A stretch of DNA of 64,000 bases from a virus (taxonomy: Duplodnaviria; Heunggongvirae; Uroviricota; Caudoviricetes), in IMG/VR virus record IMGVR_UViG_3300031133_000383, positions 122,635-186,634 of that record. One strand, 5' to 3'. A program made the position numbers and the translations under genes. Position 1 is the stretch's first letter, and each line of letters opens with the position of its first letter. Of this stretch, positions 6,305 through 23,994 are shown in pieces. Below the pieces are notes generated by a model. It was given only the letters and a program-made list of their open reading frames with translations. It made no database searches and had not been told where the DNA came from.

Positions 6305-6331
6305 TAAAAAATCCGCACTAGGCGGATTCTT
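6305..6331 (-). terminator. intrinsic terminator
   Basis: minus strand ATCCGC-ctagt-GCGGAT-TTTTT at stop of 6318-6944. Confidence 0.7.
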
Positions 6332-6944
6332 TATACTGAGTTTTACGGTATTTTTTCCAGCTTTTTATACGGTAATCACTTCTGACACGATCATCCCGAG
6401 TAGTAGGAATATGACCAGCCGTACGTTTAGCCCTGACAGGCACTTCATTTTCATCCAAAAATTCAGCTGCAGTTCTCAATGCAGCGAATGTCTTAGGATG
6501 ACGCCAAAACGAACCATAAGATCTGAATTTACCAGTACCGGGAACAGGACCTTCCCCATTCCATGTATCAAGAGAGCGGCGTATGTAACGACGATCATCC
6601 CATTCTTTTCTTTGTTTAATCGCCAATTCAGCGAATTCTATGATGGTCAAATTTTCACCATATTCATTACGCAAAACAAAATCAGAATATCTTTTCAAAA
6701 AACCATCACCACAAATATCTGCATAGGCTTTTTGGTTAGTTTTACCAGCAATACCAGATGGCTTATTGCCAAAAAAAACTCTTTCACAACTACTTTGATA
6801 CAATCTACGGTTAGGAATGTCAAATTCAAAACCAATACTGTTTTTAATAAAAGAAAAACCCAGTTTTTTGAAAGCAGCTTCTTTGCTTTCATAGGTTTCG
6901 ACAATGCCAGCTTTAGAACACAAGTAAATAACTTCTCTTTTCAT
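6318..6944 (-). CDS. basic hypothetical protein (GPVPGTG...R.PKT...SWK..RK.Q type), paralog of 16322
   Basis: 208 aa, GGAG SD; Arg/Lys-rich C-terminal half ending SWKKYRKTQYKESA. Confidence 0.8.
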   Translation of the reverse strand: MKREVIYLCSKAGIVETYESKEAAFKKLGFSFIKNSIGFEFDIPNRRLYQSSCERVFFGNKPSGIAGKTNQKAYADICGDGFLKRYSDFVLRNEYGENLTIIEFAELAIKQRKEWDDRRYIRRSLDTWNGEGPVPGTGKFRSYGSFWRHPKTFAALRTAAEFLDENEVPVRAKRTAGHIPTTRDDRVRSDYRIKSWKKYRKTQYKESA

Positions 6945-6965
6945 ATAGACTCCAATTAAATTAAT

Positions 6966-7010
6966 TTAATTTTTGTCAATGATTACCTTTTCAGCATATT
7001 TAAAATGCAT
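6966..7010 (-). CDS. putative 14-aa leader peptide MHFKYAEKVIIDKN
   Basis: AAGGAG SD 8 nt before ATG, directly after a consensus promoter; not in ORF track (too short). Confidence 0.6.
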   Translation of the reverse strand: MHFKYAEKVIIDKN

Positions 7011-12420: not shown

Positions 12421-12894
12421 ATGTTGAAATCAATCACTAAAATTAACACACAAAACAGTTCTGATTTTTTAACTGGACCTATTCAATTCGGTACTGATTG
12501 GCCGGGAACTTTTTTTACACTTTCTTACATCAATAATCTTGTGGTTAGTCATGATATTGAAGATATACAACCGGTTATTAATGCATTTGATTTTTCAAAG
12601 AACTATATCAATAGTTTCTTAAAGGAATTTATAGAGGTGGGATCATTATTTGAAAATGATGAAAGCTCACAAGACATTGCTTCACGTATACAAATAATTG
12701 AAGTTGATACATTAATGGTAGGTGACAGCACTGTTCAACGTGTTGAAACAGGTATGGTCAATATCAATAATCAAATAGGTTATTTTATTAGAGGCGATAA
12801 TGCAGGATATCTTTTGCAACTATTGTCTATAAAAAAAGACTTGTCACTGGTAGAAAACCAACTTAGATGCTCTTTATCTGGCTGTATCGTTTAA
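12421..12894 (+). CDS. hypothetical protein with internally duplicated motif
   Basis: TGPIQFGTDWPGTFF and RVETGMVNINNQIGYFIRGDNA look like two copies of one unit. Confidence 0.7.
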   Translation: MLKSITKINTQNSSDFLTGPIQFGTDWPGTFFTLSYINNLVVSHDIEDIQPVINAFDFSKNYINSFLKEFIEVGSLFENDESSQDIASRIQIIEVDTLMVGDSTVQRVETGMVNINNQIGYFIRGDNAGYLLQLLSIKKDLSLVENQLRCSLSGCIV

Positions 12895-13653
12895 TCTATC
12901 ATCATAAAAATCAAATATATTCTTTGATATAACACCTTGATTATATTTTTCTTCAAGATCATCTTTGAATGTTGTCTTATTGATTTTTATTAAAGTTTCT
13001 ATATTTTTAATAATGAACTCTTTATTGAATGATTGGTTGTTTATAGAACCTAATGAATTTTTTAAATTTTTATCAATTAGATTTGTTTTATCGTCGTCAG
13101 ACATTATAAAATATTCATTTAATATAAAAGGCCGATTAAATTCATCAAAACATTCATATTGAGATATACAGCCATTAAAAACATCTAAAAATTCTAATAA
13201 CTCATGACTTTCCAATGGAAGAAGATAATCTAAAATATTACTAATACCAGTAGTAGTCATAGTGGTTAACACTGCATGTCCTGTTTGACAGGCTAACAAA
13301 ATATCAGGTATATTTTCATTATTATTTATTTCTTCTATACAGATTATGTTTTGATTTGTTCTGAATGCTGTTTGAATATGTTTATCTAATTCATCTTTTG
13401 ATTCTGACTGCATGGTTCTGATACTTAGATTACTGGGAAATGAACTTGATCTGAAACGATTCGTTTTTTCTAATAAAAGGATTCTTTTAGCAATATTGTG
13501 ATGAAGATAATGATAAATCATAGACCCCATTAATTCAGTTCTATTGTATCCACCAATCACAATAAATCCTGATACTTTCTTAAATATATAGGAATCAAGT
13601 AGTTTTTGAGGTAGTTTTATACTAGTTTTTACATCAATTTGGGGATGAATCAT
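12874..13653 (-). CDS. degenerate PilT/DotB-like P-loop ATPase
   Basis: FRTNQNIICIEEIN and CQTGHAVLTTMTT match the Walker B and His-box regions; Walker A broken (GGYNRT). Confidence 0.65.
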   Translation of the reverse strand: MIHPQIDVKTSIKLPQKLLDSYIFKKVSGFIVIGGYNRTELMGSMIYHYLHHNIAKRILLLEKTNRFRSSSFPSNLSIRTMQSESKDELDKHIQTAFRTNQNIICIEEINNNENIPDILLACQTGHAVLTTMTTTGISNILDYLLPLESHELLEFLDVFNGCISQYECFDEFNRPFILNEYFIMSDDDKTNLIDKNLKNSLGSINNQSFNKEFIIKNIETLIKINKTTFKDDLEEKYNQGVISKNIFDFYDDRLNDTAR

Positions 13654-13777: not shown

Positions 13778-15340
13778 ATGAAAAAAATGCAGGAATGGGC
13801 AATTCATACGACACTTGATAATGGATGGGCGACACATCAATTTAATCAGTTTATTTCAAATGCAGATCAATCAGAATTTTTACGTTCTCAGATTCCATTT
13901 TTTTATGCTGTTCAAGCTTTTCCACAAGCATTGTCTAAACTAGCCAGTCAAATTGAAACCAGTGAGCAACGCTGGTTGGTCATTGAAAATCTGTATGAGG
14001 AACACGGACAAGGAAATTTTAAGAAATTCCATACATCAACATTTAAAGAGTTTCTAACAGTATTGGGTTGGAATCAGGAATTATATAGAAATCCATGGGT
14101 TACCGAATGGGTTGATAATGTTTTATCAAAAGACCTATCTGCCGGTGAATATGCTGCTTATCTAGCAGGGATTGAATTTGCTTATGCTCCCATTAGTAAA
14201 ACAATTGCTGACCACATGAACCATTTAGGTTTGATTACTAAACAAAATCACTATGGAAATCATGCTGATCTCGATTGGCTTCATGGTGCTGAATTATTGG
14301 ATGTAGCCTTAAGTCTTTCAGAATCCTATGACAAATTACAGGATGTTTTTAAGCAAGCTCAATATGAATTTTTAGATTTATATTCTCATCTTATCATACC
14401 GACAGCATTTGAAATGAAAGAAATCAATAAAGAAGATATTTCATTTTATTACACTCGCGAAGACAGTGGACCAGAAATATTTGCTGTTTCTAATGCCATT
14501 AATTCAGGAGTTTCAAAACCCTCAATCTTGATGATTGGTTCGGGTGGAGAAACACTTATTGATTTATTGAGTATTCCTAGACCTCTAAATATTGATGTCA
14601 TTGATATGAATTCACATCAATTGGAACTTTGTAAATTTAAAATTTCACAATTATTATCGTTTGATACTTATTCAAATATTGACACTCATTTTTCTGGCAA
14701 GTTTGAAAAGATTTTTTCTCGTATCAGAGAAATTTTCAATTATCAAGGTGAGGATAAGCTTTCTACTTATATTGCAACATCTTCACAAGGACAACAGAAA
14801 CTAAAATACATTGTAAACAACCTGTTTTCCAATGAAAATTTGGCACATGTTTTTAGTGATAGAGCAACAAAATTCTCATCAGAAAGCTTTGCTGATCATT
14901 TTTATAATGTGTTTGTAAAAGCTTGTCAAAATTTCAGACAAAGCCGATCTACAGCAAAAAATATTTTCAATATCATTGATGGTGAAGATATAACGCTATC
15001 AAAACATATGCTAGACGCTTTTAATCTTTATTATCATAATCATTATGTAACTTATACTTTGGGCAATTTTGAAAGTTTAAAGTCAAATGAAAAATATGAT
15101 ATTGTTTCTATCTCAAATATTGGCGACTGGATGCCAATTGAACAGTATAAAGAGTTGTTAGCATCTGTTCGCGAAAAATTGAAACCTAATGGTGTAGTTG
15201 TTGCTAGAAAATTATTAGGCGACTATAGTTTAGAGCAAATTTTACGTGAAAATAGTTTTAAATGTCGTAATATAACTGACAATACTTTCTTTTATTCCGA
15301 AGTCTGCTTGGGATCTTTTGCCGGAAGATCTGGCAATTGA
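13778..15340 (+). CDS. fusion: heme-oxygenase-like diiron oxidase (CADD/PqqC-like) + DUF3419/BtaA-like SAM-dependent transferase
   Basis: ENLYEEHG..H, GIE, HYGNHADLDWLH; C-terminal YTRED, MIGSGGE, IDMNSHQL, SISNIGDWM. Confidence 0.75.
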   Translation: MKKMQEWAIHTTLDNGWATHQFNQFISNADQSEFLRSQIPFFYAVQAFPQALSKLASQIETSEQRWLVIENLYEEHGQGNFKKFHTSTFKEFLTVLGWNQELYRNPWVTEWVDNVLSKDLSAGEYAAYLAGIEFAYAPISKTIADHMNHLGLITKQNHYGNHADLDWLHGAELLDVALSLSESYDKLQDVFKQAQYEFLDLYSHLIIPTAFEMKEINKEDISFYYTREDSGPEIFAVSNAINSGVSKPSILMIGSGGETLIDLLSIPRPLNIDVIDMNSHQLELCKFKISQLLSFDTYSNIDTHFSGKFEKIFSRIREIFNYQGEDKLSTYIATSSQGQQKLKYIVNNLFSNENLAHVFSDRATKFSSESFADHFYNVFVKACQNFRQSRSTAKNIFNIIDGEDITLSKHMLDAFNLYYHNHYVTYTLGNFESLKSNEKYDIVSISNIGDWMPIEQYKELLASVREKLKPNGVVVARKLLGDYSLEQILRENSFKCRNITDNTFFYSEVCLGSFAGRSGN

Positions 15341-15386
15341 TTACCGTAAATATGTCAGTTCTAAATATAGACTATAGGATAACATA

Positions 15387-16193
15387 ATGCATTTTTCAAA
15401 AAAACTACATATTAAAGTTTTAAATCTGAATGATTCGTTGGTTCGAAACAAATACAGTCACCTTCTGATGGAATATGAAAATATTTTCACTTATCCATTG
15501 GGGTCAAGATCTTTTCATATTCGCCATGGTTTTAGTGGTAATTATGACTACTTTTCTTTCTTTGAGCAAATGGGTGAAGTTCACTATATTGTAGCAGAAC
15601 ATGATAGTTGTTTAGTAGCGGCGGGGTGTGCCATATTACGAAATATTAATAACGAAAAAGTGTGGTACTTGTGTGATTTCAAATTAACTCCTGAATATCG
15701 CGGCAAAGGTATTCTTGAAAAGATGTTTAGAAAGTATGTCTTTTCTTTTTATTTGAAATCGCAAAAAATGTTTTTTGTGAACATGAGCACTATTCAGGGC
15801 AATGGTCTTATCAAAAAGGCTTCAAAAATATTCAAGATATTTGGATTAAAAAAAGAAAATCTGTACTTTTTTGAATGGAGTAAGAATGATGTAATACATA
15901 CAGACATAGATTTGACTCAATTTGTTATTTTAACAAATGCTCATAAAAAAGATATTGTAATTGATGATAAATCTTATCCTATTTATCATCTTGTTCAAAA
16001 AAACTCTTATATTGATTTAACAAAATTTGAGAAAATTCATATAAACGACATTTCTGACACGGATACGTTGATGTATTGTGGCGTGAAAAATAGTATCATC
16101 GATCACTTGCTGGTTAATCAACAACCAGCAACTATTGGCAGCTTTGTTTCTCATCGATTTAATACTAGTTTTTTTTCAAGTGCCGAAATCTAA
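15387..16193 (+). CDS. GNAT-family N-acyltransferase
   Basis: motif A WYLCDFKLTPEYRGKGI; 46 nt downstream of the fusion gene. Confidence 0.75.
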   Translation: MHFSKKLHIKVLNLNDSLVRNKYSHLLMEYENIFTYPLGSRSFHIRHGFSGNYDYFSFFEQMGEVHYIVAEHDSCLVAAGCAILRNINNEKVWYLCDFKLTPEYRGKGILEKMFRKYVFSFYLKSQKMFFVNMSTIQGNGLIKKASKIFKIFGLKKENLYFFEWSKNDVIHTDIDLTQFVILTNAHKKDIVIDDKSYPIYHLVQKNSYIDLTKFEKIHINDISDTDTLMYCGVKNSIIDHLLVNQQPATIGSFVSHRFNTSFFSSAEI

Positions 16194-16200
16194 ATTTTTG

Positions 16201-16229
16201 TTGACAATTTTTTGATAACATTAGATAAT
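16201..16229 (+). promoter_or_regulatory. sigma70 promoter
   Basis: TTGACA-N17-GATAAT. Confidence 0.6.
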
Positions 16230-16253
16230 GTAATACTTCAAATAGGAAATTAT

Positions 16254-16307
16254 ATGCAATTTTTAATTATTAAATTATTTTCTGGTATCTTTCGATGTTT
16301 TAACTAA
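16254..16307 (+). CDS. putative 17-aa leader peptide MQFLIIKLFSGIFRCFN
   Basis: AGGAA SD; stop TAA lies at the loop/3' arm of hairpin 16289-16316. Confidence 0.55.
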   Translation: MQFLIIKLFSGIFRCFN

Positions 16308-16316
16308 CATCGGAGG
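16289..16316 (+). promoter_or_regulatory. SD-sequestering hairpin
   Basis: CTTTCGATGTT(16289-99) pairs with AACATCGGAGG(16306-16), 11 bp incl. 2 G-U, covering GGAGG. Confidence 0.65.
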
Positions 16317-16321
16317 TAAGT

Positions 16322-16903
16322 ATGTTTTACACGTATAAGATAAGGTCTTTTGAAGGAAAGTGTTATTATTATTTTTCTAAAGACAGTATATTTAGATTGG
16401 TTGATGATTTTGGAGTTCGTAGTTTTAAACTAGAATTCTGCAATGACTTTATTGTTGGTAGTAAGTCTGGCATCTTACATTCATATCAGAAAAAGCCTCA
16501 CTATTACTATTTTGAAGGTCAAATGTATGAAGACTATGATCATACCCCTGTATATCGTAGTGGAAATTACATTATCAGAAACTATGCAGGACAAATCGTT
16601 GACATTGAAACGTTGGTAGCAGAATATTGTCAGTCTCGAAATATTTACAATAAAAAGAAAAATAAAGCAGTCAAACATAAGGGGTCTAAAAAAAGAAAGT
16701 ATTCTCCAAAAGGAATCAATAGATATTTTTCTGGTATTAAAAATGAATTTTCTCAAAATCTTATTGACGAGTCAGAAGGTTTTGTAAAAATTAGAGGCAA
16801 GAGAAAAAATGCTGTCAAAAGAGACTATGATTATGAATTTTATCGTGAAAATACTAACTCAGTATCATGGAAGTGTACTAATAAAAATAAGCAATGGATG
16901 TGA
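16322..16903 (+). CDS. basic hypothetical protein, distant paralog of 6318
   Basis: IRNYAGQIVDI / IRGKR / SWKCTNKNKQWM parallel LRNEYGENLTI / VRAKR / SWKKYRKTQYK. Confidence 0.75.
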   Translation: MFYTYKIRSFEGKCYYYFSKDSIFRLVDDFGVRSFKLEFCNDFIVGSKSGILHSYQKKPHYYYFEGQMYEDYDHTPVYRSGNYIIRNYAGQIVDIETLVAEYCQSRNIYNKKKNKAVKHKGSKKRKYSPKGINRYFSGIKNEFSQNLIDESEGFVKIRGKRKNAVKRDYDYEFYRENTNSVSWKCTNKNKQWM

Positions 16904-16936
16904 GTCCCTTGCTTTTTTAATAACTCAGAGGCACTA

Positions 16937-17845
16937 ATGACTCATTTATTTTTAAAAAAAATCTACGCAAAGTATTTGACAAAACGTTATAAAGCAACTT
17001 CAAAATCTCACCAAGCTGTATTGTCATTTGGCGAAAGTCGGATAGTCGATTTTGAATGGGTTATTTATCGGCTTTATTTGATAATGCCTTTTGGTAGAAA
17101 AATACAACAATTACGAGCATTTAGAAATGTTTTATCCATGGAGTATGGGGATATTGGTACATTTTCAATATTAATACGATCATCCTTATTTTTATATAAT
17201 TATAGTTTTATAAAAACTCTTAATTTATCTGATGATTATTTTTTGATTGATGAGCAGGAAAGAGTTTTAAATCTGATTTATTTTCTAAGTGGCTATGTGT
17301 TTAATCCCAATAGCACTATACAGAACACTCAACTTCCTCTAAATAAGAACGCCTACAGAAATAGATATTTCAGTTCTTATCATGATGATAAGATGATAAT
17401 GAAAACTATTGAAGATGTTTATAAAGAATTAAGATTGAAATATACAACAAAAGAGCTATTTAATAATAATCCATTATTAGTGGCAAGTCCTTTTTTGATA
17501 CTTAAAAAAAAGGGTGATGTTTTAAAAGGTGTAAATATTAAAATAAAAGAAAGTGATGGTGGACATATTTCCATATTTATATTGAAAAATAATAATGGTG
17601 CTTATTTTTTCAAAATAGAAACTAGTAAAAATGATTTTTCATCCATGTGTAATGATCATTTGGCAGGAAATAATATTTTTCAATATACTCGTTTTATGCA
17701 TAAAATGAAAGAAACAAGCGATTTTTCTGTTATTATAAATGCTATTTCCATGTTTTTTATTAATCATTTTAATCCCTCCTACACATCAAGCAAGCCTTAT
17801 ATGTTGAGAGATAAATACCTTCTTGATATGATCGATTATGATTAA
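16937..17845 (+). CDS. hypothetical protein, MxxPhi motif variant (Met at -5)
   Basis: GAGG SD; ends DKYLLDMIDYD. Confidence 0.75.
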   Translation: MTHLFLKKIYAKYLTKRYKATSKSHQAVLSFGESRIVDFEWVIYRLYLIMPFGRKIQQLRAFRNVLSMEYGDIGTFSILIRSSLFLYNYSFIKTLNLSDDYFLIDEQERVLNLIYFLSGYVFNPNSTIQNTQLPLNKNAYRNRYFSSYHDDKMIMKTIEDVYKELRLKYTTKELFNNNPLLVASPFLILKKKGDVLKGVNIKIKESDGGHISIFILKNNNGAYFFKIETSKNDFSSMCNDHLAGNNIFQYTRFMHKMKETSDFSVIINAISMFFINHFNPSYTSSKPYMLRDKYLLDMIDYD

Positions 17846-22503: not shown

Positions 22504-23994
22504 ATGTCAAAAATTGTCATAGTCCATTCACTGTCTGAAAATAAATTAACACAAGCTATTAAACTTGGAGGTATGCCTCTTCCAAGTATAGCAGCAATGA
22601 ATCCAGATAATGAGTTTACCAGATTTGGGAATATAACGTTTATCGTAAAACCAGAATCAGTTAACCCTAAAGATAAAAAAAATTTATTTTTTGACAGAGA
22701 TATTTTTTCTCAACGTATTCCTACATTATATTACGATGTTGACAAAAAGCAGTTTGATAGTTTTTACAACAAAGTCGAGCAATATATTAAAAACAGACAT
22801 GAATTAAGTACGCTTTTTTCAATGTATGATGTAGATTCTTTACGTAGAAAACCTTCTGAATATATTCAAAATCGTATATTATCTGACTCTATTATCAAAA
22901 TGATGTTTGTCGATACTTTTGATCCATCCTATGAGTTACCTTATAAAAAAGCAAAGTTAGAATCCGATTTATCAAATGACACTATTTTTAAAAATTTCAT
23001 GATATCTCAACGATTAGATATCAAATATGATGATACATTTGCAGTTGAAATAAAATCAGCCATTGAGCGACGTTATTCTTTTTATAAAGATGCTGTAGGA
23101 ACAACTATTGCAAATGATATTAAGCATTCATATGAAAATTCTCTTTTCTCATATGATGGCAAAATAAATACACACTCAAGAGAAATTTTAAATATTATCA
23201 ATGATATTCCAACCTATGCGGATAATGCCTTATCTGTTGATCTTGAATTATTGAGAAAGCAGATAAATTCTATTGTTGAGAATAATCAGCATGCATATAA
23301 AGACTTTGTAGATTCATTAACGGACGGGGTATTTAAAAACCCACATTTAAAAAATGGAAATCGAAAGGTTGAATACACATTAGAAAATATAGAAAAATTT
23401 ATGTTACGTCAAAAAGTAACAGCTATTGAAGAAACATCAGATACCAGTATTGGTAAAATATCTTCGTCTTATGCAACTCAGTTTAAGTCATATGATGAAA
23501 TGATTCATTCGTCATCTATTCTAGATACTATTGAAGATAGAAGTTCTGCTATGGATGTTATTCATAGAGAAATATTCAATCTGACTGAACACATGATGCC
23601 TTATTTTGATGGTTCTCGCTTTTTTGAGGCTCAGGAAAGTTTATCTTTATCATTACATAATATAAAAAATCATGAACAGTTCATTAGTAAATTGAACAGT
23701 AATGGCTTTAATAGTAGTGAAATACCTATGGATTTAATAGATTCAGGATTTAAAATTGTAAATAAAATTAAAAACTTAACAAATCATTATTTTGAGGGAA
23801 AACCACAAAAAGTATTAAATTTTAAAGATTTTTCTGCTGTTGTCTTGCCAGTTAATACATCGCCAGATATTATTGATTATTTAAAACAACATATGAAAGT
23901 TCATCAATATTCAAAGCCTTCTGAAAAAATCGAAATTTTCAAAAAATATTCTTTTGATGAGTCTCCAAAAGTTATTAAAAAAATAAAGCCATAA
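22504..23994 (+). CDS. protein resembling a domain of phage/plasmid large polyvalent proteins
   Basis: IVHSLSENKL..LGGMPLPSIA..FGNITF and YFEGKP..F.AVVLP motifs (recalled similarity, not searched). Confidence 0.6.
   Translation: MSKIVIVHSLSENKLTQAIKLGGMPLPSIAAMNPDNEFTRFGNITFIVKPESVNPKDKKNLFFDRDIFSQRIPTLYYDVDKKQFDSFYNKVEQYIKNRHELSTLFSMYDVDSLRRKPSEYIQNRILSDSIIKMMFVDTFDPSYELPYKKAKLESDLSNDTIFKNFMISQRLDIKYDDTFAVEIKSAIERRYSFYKDAVGTTIANDIKHSYENSLFSYDGKINTHSREILNIINDIPTYADNALSVDLELLRKQINSIVENNQHAYKDFVDSLTDGVFKNPHLKNGNRKVEYTLENIEKFMLRQKVTAIEETSDTSIGKISSSYATQFKSYDEMIHSSSILDTIEDRSSAMDVIHREIFNLTEHMMPYFDGSRFFEAQESLSLSLHNIKNHEQFISKLNSNGFNSSEIPMDLIDSGFKIVNKIKNLTNHYFEGKPQKVLNFKDFSAVVLPVNTSPDIIDYLKQHMKVHQYSKPSEKIEIFKKYSFDESPKVIKKIKP

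Follow-up and report, generated by a model that had tools for sequence, protein, structure and literature searches.

A leader reading frame and a Shine-Dalgarno-hiding hairpin conserved upstream of an uncharacterised family of basic-tailed phage proteins

The locus and its setting

The window analysed here is a 64,000-nucleotide stretch (positions 122,635–186,634) of the IMG/VR virus record IMGVR_UViG_3300031133_000383, which has 437,043 bases at 31% GC and is 98% complete by CheckV. The record carries 26 tRNA genes, among them a tRNA-Cys and one tRNA with a CUA (amber) anticodon (G000:C1:375947–376020); Sinorhizobium phage Phosso and the genome G001 carry a CUA tRNA as well. TAG makes up 12% of the stops of its long ORFs and CGA 13% of its Arg codons, and neither cysS nor a release-factor gene was found in it. 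DNA near-identical to the record occurs in phyllosphere and dairy metagenomes. A neighbouring gene for an outer-membrane barrel has its sole plasmid match in Pseudomonas, which hints weakly at the host.

A gene for a 193-aa protein is preceded in the window by a promoter, a short leader ORF and a hairpin over the Shine-Dalgarno (SD) sequence of the gene (Table 1). An earlier note on this DNA had described this promoter, a 17-codon leader and an 11-bp stem over GGAGG, and all of them lie where it placed them. Promoter-like sites are frequent by chance in the region (8 seen, 6.3 expected); a similar −35/−10 pair is present at the matching place, upstream of the leader, in 11 of 13 homologous loci. 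No terminator-like site occurs in 16000–17100, and the features of a transcription attenuator of the thrL/hisL type are absent, since the leader has one Cys codon rather than a run of cognate codons and the terminator hairpin is missing.

Table 1. Features of the switch and the two family genes in the window
Feature	Position	Strand	Remarks
Sigma-70-type promoter, TTGACA-17-GATAAT	16201–16229	+	11/12 consensus matches; best of 8 sites in the region
Leader SD	16243–16247	+	AGGA, 6 nt upstream of the leader ORF, from the sequence; leader SD in 14/14 clade loci
Leader ORF	16254–16307	+	17 codons, TAA end; conserved L4, K7, aromatic residue at 9, G11 and [F/Y]-R-C-F-N; synonymous excess, 3-nt indel, stops in the other frames
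Hairpin, 11 bp	16289–16316	+	5′ arm 16289–16299 (leader codons 13–16), loop 16300–16305, 3′ arm 16306–16316; covariation
Candidate pause window, codons F13-R14(CGA)-C15(TGT)	16290–16298	+	C15 16 nt before the SD, the slot of the leader stop in most relatives; geometry table and footprint model
Start-Phe-stop mini-ORF (putative rival element)	16295–16303	+	−1 frame; invariant in the 10 R-C-F-N loci; start-stop equivalents in L019, L027 and L028
Main-gene SD, GGAGG	16312–16316	+	Paired in the hairpin (paired probability 0.99)
193-aa protein	16322–16903	+	Neutral folded N-domain (1–106, pI 6.8); basic, partly extended C-tail (107–193, pI 10.2) ending W-K-x6-Q-W
Copy 1, remote paralogue, with its own leader	6318–7010	−	Gene 6318–6944; 14-codon leader 6966–7010, leader stop 15 nt before the SD

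The stem consists of 9 Watson-Crick and 2 G-U pairs closed by a 6-nt loop and covers the entire GGAGG. The leader stop, which had been placed inside the stem, in fact straddles it, with AA in the 3′ arm and T in the loop; it lies 7 nt before the main SD and 14 nt before the main ATG. Taken alone the hairpin is modest (z −1.86, with equally good folds in 9 of 200 shuffles). The local energy of −13.3 kcal/mol is at about the 1st percentile for the genome. When the 171 genes of the 437-kb record with an SD and an upstream gap of at least 70 nt are taken as background, an SD-led leader reaching the initiation region is found in 7 and an SD-hiding hairpin in 7; the window gene is the only one that has both.

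The 8-mer ATGTTTTA occurs twice, 27 nt apart, once in the 5′ arm (16295–16302) and once at the main start (16322–16329). In four homologous loci (L015, L016, L021 and L022) GGAGGT precedes each copy of the 8-mer, as if the initiation region had been duplicated.

Conservation of the leader and the stem

Searching 1.84 billion representatives returned 10 proteins related to the window protein at 28–47% identity, and a metagenome scan added loci. The clade considered here comprises the window and 13 loci whose upstream DNA was read (n = 14); kinship among them (97% between L017 and L026, 72–81% among L015, L021 and L022) leaves about 9 independent lineages. No further members were obtained by tblastn of the window protein against phages and plasmids, by tblastn of P0010 against phages, or by locus scans of viral and genome contigs, and two DNA-pattern scans for the leader returned chance matches only, none with a family gene behind it. 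The homologues of L021, L022 and L026 are on metagenome contigs of 0.52, 1.86 and 1.54 Mb (28–33% GC locally). If these contigs were the same kind of element, they would be far larger than known phages; alternatively they may be megaplasmids or chromosomes.

In all 14 clade loci the main SD is covered by a stem, and a leader with its own SD begins 55–72 nt upstream of the main ATG, which bears out the earlier proposal of a conserved translational switch. The gene neighbourhoods differ across the clade. The genes immediately 5′ of the switch in the window (13778–16193), for a haem-oxygenase-like/DUF3419 fusion and a GNAT protein, are syntenic in four loci (52–58% identity) and absent elsewhere. 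Ten leaders contain R-C-F-N, either at the end or internally; in nine of these it is preceded by F or Y. Comparison of the leaders of L017 and L024 outside the stem gives 5 synonymous changes against 2 replacements (pS 0.81, pN 0.08, P ~0.001 over 15 codons), and also a 3-nt indel. Over three independent pairs the synonymous excess has a P of 0.006, and the other two frames of the leader region are interrupted by stops. Judged from this pattern of substitutions, the leader is read as protein and is under coding selection. For the stem, 77% of the cells in an alignment that includes the sequence supplying the structure are paired, against 37–52% with the partner slid, and both sides have changed in 6 of the 11 pairs. 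By this covariation the stem is a real RNA structure.

Control by RNA alone would leave the leader ORF incidental: a hairpin with a U-rich loop could be bound by a protein, possibly the product itself, which is basic, or could melt physically. The loop is indeed nearly invariant in the R-C-F-N loci, with the minority codon AAC in 8 of 10. Such control is very improbable, however, in view of the coding selection, the frame-preserving indels and the leader SD in nearly every member of the family; moreover, the loops of the members that resemble copy 1, the second family gene of the window, are wholly different from those of the clade.

The leaders end at different places. The stop is placed as in the window in 6 clade loci; in 7 the leader stays open beyond the main start, in a different frame from the main gene; and in one locus (L019) the stop occupies the position of the Cys codon of R-C-F-N, referred to below as the slot. 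A fixed leader stop upstream of the main start is present in the window and in the copy-1-like members and absent in the 7 loci. Plain translational coupling, by which any ribosome crossing or ending on the leader would open the stem and regulation, if any, would act at leader initiation through an antisense RNA or the protein itself, agrees with a leader stop 14 nt before the main ATG, as in the window and likewise 5 other loci. It also agrees with the copy-1-like members, whose leader peptides are short and unconserved and where termination in the 5′ arm could alone open the SD. A ribosome at the stop of the IncI rep leader peptide exposes the rep signal in such a way (PMC4705826). Nevertheless, hindrance would be expected where leaders run over the main SD and start, and for coupling there would be no need to keep the residues conserved ahead of the stem. 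With 7 of the 14 leaders continuing in another frame beyond the main start codon, termination-reinitiation cannot serve as a general mechanism. Coupling as a whole is unlikely. In the window's clade the stop of the leader itself is probably not what does the work.

In L019 the codon in the slot is TAG (L019:2977–2979); were it read through, leader and main protein would become one in-frame fusion, and copy 1, L007, L029 and L061 would give such a fusion as well.

The main protein and its family

The predicted structure of the window protein (mean pLDDT 77, pTM 0.47) has an N-domain of hairpins and helices, and its tail, with 24 K/R in 87 residues, is predicted as a disordered stretch and two helices. 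The shortest family members, of 67–83 aa (L042, L059 and L061), are made of the tail only, and therefore the tail is the core of the family. Searches of Pfam, NCBIfam and PHROG with the window protein gave no match, Pfam with the window protein and 10 relatives gave none to the rescue factors ArfA, BrfA and ArfT, and Atlas features and structure, PDB sequence and Foldseek PDB searches returned nothing for the window protein. BFVD returned uncharacterised phage proteins only (best E 7e-4; Aeromonas phage Ah1 and Serratia phage BF). The best VIA-align match, ERH (Z 5.5, rmsd 3.1, 66 residues), is under the level that the tool regards as meaningful and does not establish a new fold. A likeness by eye of the N-terminal hairpin-helix to NUMOD1 found no support in Pfam. 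RNA-library contigs of two studies partially cover the main ORF at a depth of 4–5; silent on level, strand and start, they suggest weakly that it is expressed.

Copy 1, on the opposite strand, passes the leader filter of the genome scan and fails its hairpin filter (SD paired 0.25). Similarity between the two proteins was undetected by BLASTP and by a 3-sequence profile. With profiles enlarged by cultured-phage and megaplasmid relatives, hhalign gave 93.6% (E 2e-7) over 111 columns that include the W-K...Q-[W/Y] tail, and the copy-1 profile, run against the other 929 ORFs of the genome, ranked the window protein first (E 0.001; next 0.24). The earlier note had already pointed to a basic C-terminal region common to both proteins and to a family link. 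The tail pattern is present in the two copies and in no other of 509 ORFs of at least 100 aa, and by the profile comparison the two copies are remote paralogues. Three other ORFs of the genome score weakly against the profile but have no W-K...Q tail and were not accepted as paralogues. Copy 1 and 8 of the 10 remote relatives scanned match PHROG 12793 or 13345, families of unknown function for which neither a function nor a leader is recorded; the window protein matches neither, and PHROG 13345 weakly matches 2 members of the window clade (best E 0.0017).

Leaders of 5–14 codons with an SD-hiding stem precede family members in Phosso, Caulobacter phages CcrPW and Colossus, Brevundimonas phage Kikimora, and Ochrobactrum and Rhizobium phages; the same arrangement, with leaders in this length range, precedes members on Variovorax, Bosea, Rhizobium and Azospirillum plasmids. 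The possibility that homologs lack leaders, raised in the earlier note as a point against its reading, was checked with one automatic rule and is not borne out: an SD-led leader was found in 29 of 31 scored loci, against 7 of 171 genes genome-wide, where the main start was hand-chosen in five loci, the leader chosen by the rule differed from the manual choice in three, and L062–L064, being unclear, were left unscored. Another of its observations, that both leaders begin with M-x-F and end with Asn-TAA, holds for the two copies but not beyond them. The copy-1 orthologues end in Tyr, several leaders have no M-x-F and the stops are at non-equivalent positions; as shared signals these features are coincidental.

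The 17 copy-1-like loci have their leader stop, UAG being the commonest, inside or beside the 5′ arm, 13–25 nt before the SD in the 15 with a placeable SD. F-R is common before this stop, which is explained by pairing with the SD, because the F-H of L060 carries a compensatory change. A resemblance of V/I-D-K in the copy-1 leader to ErmBL is not conserved in the wider relatives, and an enrichment of queuosine codons at the last leader codon, in ~4 of 10 lineages, was not convincing. In Kikimora (L038:651–1298) the family gene (~672–986, +) is unannotated and the record calls an opposite-strand ORF instead. It follows three tRNA-Ser genes; L061, judged by eye from its sequence, is the other member directly behind tRNA genes. 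Literature searches of open-access text found no description of the family, and the switch is real, conserved and apparently undescribed.

Modelled position of the ribosome on the leader

The slot lies 14–17 nt before the SD in the clade and contains TGT in 11 loci and TAT, CAT and TAG in one each, with CGA before it in 12 of 14. Across the family it is occupied by UAG, UAA, UGA, UGU, CAU or UAU. According to a footprint model, the SD is covered when a ribosome stands at the stop of the window leader. A ribosome with any of codons 12–15 in its A site removes the stem, raises the accessibility of the SD from 0.01 to 0.28–0.46 and leaves 4–13 nt between itself and the SD. The small gap for a stalled ribosome, 4–10 nt in the model, is tighter than in some known attenuators. 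Because of the slot and stop geometry in the clade and the footprint model, the feature conserved across the family is the position of the ribosome and not the end of the leader. The locus thus has a translated uORF with its own SD, as indicated indirectly by sequence, a stem between leader and SD, and, in the model, a stem-opening position that spares the SD, as an attenuator should.

We consider it likely that a ribosome delayed at codons 13–15 opens the SD, whatever the cause of the delay, and we infer that its dwelling at the slot is conditional. Known arrest motifs (R/K-x-R/K, RAPP-like, Pro-stop) do not occur in the leader, and the aligned leaders contain no conserved R/K-x-R/K or penultimate Ala, Ser or Thr. 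The invariant CGA-TGT-TTT is compatible with a constraint at the nucleotide level, which counts against a stall.

The delay may have a narrow cause, the shortage of one charged tRNA, either Cys-tRNA at UGU or Arg-tRNA(ICG) at CGA, as in other amino-acid-sensing leaders of this phage. For instance, the leader of tyrS (G000:C1:242915–242965, outside the window) ends CGA-TAT-stop just before its anti-SD, its CGA being outside the stem; CGA thus stands ahead of the cognate codon, and an Arg(CGA)-then-codon design recurs in the window leader. The prevalence of TGT in the slot (11/14) and of CGA before it (12/14), the share of CGA among Arg codons, the tRNA-Cys of the genome and, in L017, a gene for Cys-tRNA synthetase that follows the homologue at a distance of 2.2 kb and in the same orientation (L017:6816–8192) are in line with such sensing, and rbfL offers a precedent for the sensing of a rare Arg codon (PMC13009471). 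The leader has only a single Cys codon, however; three clade members have His, Tyr or stop in the slot, where the copy-1-like members all have a stop; the CGA is also fixed by pairing with the SD; cysS was not found in the genome, and no Cys-related function is visible in the protein. We rate single-tRNA sensing as rather unlikely. The varied content of the slot, with three stop and three sense codons, points to a general signal rather than to one amino acid.

Recoding is a further possibility, by initiation at the hidden start-Phe-stop ORF, by a −1 slip on the Phe codon into the stop of that ORF, or by read-through of UAG through a suppressor tRNA of the phage. A start followed by a stop within two codons is found 16–17 nt before the SD in 13 of 14 loci, with GGAG(G) 9–10 nt before it in five; F-R-C-F-N-stop in the window mirrors F-R-UAG-x-x-stop in Phosso, and the window genome, Phosso and G001 have the CUA tRNA. 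Yet such a start arises with any Cys codon after A or T, the window has no good SD for the mini-ORF, other members use UAA or UGA, and a partial scan of the tRNA clusters of the UAG-leader phages CcrPW and Kikimora did not find a CUA tRNA. A strict link between UAG leaders and suppressor tRNA fails, with the CUA tRNA in 2 of 4 phages, and recoding or mini-ORF control is quite improbable.

Proposed mechanism and comparison with known systems

The explanation placed first, to which we give nearly an even chance, is a general switch activated by stalling and responding to delayed A-site function. On the promoter-driven mRNA the hairpin, supported by computation and covariation, would keep the main gene silent. 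Ribosomes load on the leader, as its coding selection indicates, and in normal passage would open the stem only briefly. A ribosome held with codons 12–15 in the A site would strip the 5′ arm and free the SD for a second ribosome; the geometry follows from the model and the stall is presumed. The likeliest held state would have Arg(CGA) in the P site with the Cys codon waiting. In the wider family, mostly with a stop codon in the slot, the delay would be slow termination. Candidate inducers are antibiotics that target the ribosome, host defences acting by tRNA destruction or by a block of termination, and starvation. From within the exit tunnel, the residues conserved ahead of the stem may modulate the pause, and the induced protein would bind ribosomes or RNA through its basic tail and help phage translation continue.

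In ermC/ermB, cat-86 and cmlA, arrest of a ribosome on the leader unmasks an SD held in a stem, and cat-86 and cmlA have a single-hairpin layout. The window switch resembles them in an SD-masking stem to be opened by a leader ribosome, and cat-86 and cmlA also in the single hairpin, but the gene downstream is not a resistance gene and arrest motifs are not conserved. Arrest at the stop codon itself occurs in msrDL (PMC12121999). Unlike the ermC, cat-86, cmlA and msrDL leaders, those of the present family have a stop or a sense codon in the same slot. In toiL-topAI of E. coli, pairing between a translated uORF and the RBS that follows it is repressive; ribosomes moving normally along the uORF break the hairpin only for a moment, and stalled ones lift the repression (PMC12121999). 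The likeness lies in a short translated uORF that pairs with an RBS, toiL responding to several translation stresses. However, toiL starts 139 nt upstream, its pairing is long-range and it controls a toxin-antitoxin pair, whereas the window has a local hairpin, a slot ~16 nt from the SD, an undescribed phage protein and a putative stall. Similarly, in the IncI/IncB rep leader and R1 tap, leader translation and a ribosome at a fixed stop open a downstream initiation signal (PMC4705826). A pseudoknot or antisense RNA as in IncI/IncB rep is not seen here, and half of the clade lacks the stop but has the peptide. The class of mechanism is thus already known, and the present case is a variant of translational attenuation on an uncharacterised family.

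Genes behind ribosome-stall leaders usually fix or exploit the stall, such as resistance factors, synthetases and parts of the translocase. The rescue factors ArfA, BrfA and ArfT, small basic proteins with little folded structure, are produced when ribosomes become stuck, and ArfA and BrfA are controlled through non-stop mRNA and tmRNA. The shortest members of the present family are of the same size; however, there is no sequence match, control here is by a leader, and most members have an extra N-domain. Since distant relatives in many large phages and megaplasmids retain the switch, the family is probably expressed in response to stalled translation. Its size and charge, its control and its surroundings suggest, tentatively, that the product most likely binds ribosomes or RNA and so aids phage translation; a translation inhibitor or a DNA-binding protein is a less likely alternative. 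The earlier note had likewise suggested action on ribosomes or RNA, perhaps with feedback on translation. More speculatively, the family may be a translation-stress module in which the leader times the A-site wait and switches on a basic-tailed ribosome factor that restores or shields phage translation against antibiotics or host defences that target tRNA or termination.

An uncharacterised family retains the switch at 25–45% protein identity; its members occur on plasmids of 0.7–1.9 Mb and in cultured phages, both jumbo and T4-like, that infect Sinorhizobium, Caulobacter, Brevundimonas, Ochrobactrum and Agrobacterium. The cultured phage-host pairs make the family readily testable, and the inducer of the switch offers a direct route to its function. 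The exchange of stop and sense codons at one geometric slot is a natural experiment on the evolution of such switches.

Other genes of the record

A 496-aa protein (window 22504–23994) contains a PBECR5 domain, a barnase/colicin E5/RelE-like nuclease (E 5e-17). On the minus strand at window 12874–13653 lies a degenerate T2SSE-type ATPase, a homologue of which is close to the family gene in L014, L017 and L026. The strongest SD-hiding hairpin of the background scan (−16.6 kcal/mol), with no leader detected, belongs to a 115-aa gene elsewhere in the record (G000:C1:294242–294589).
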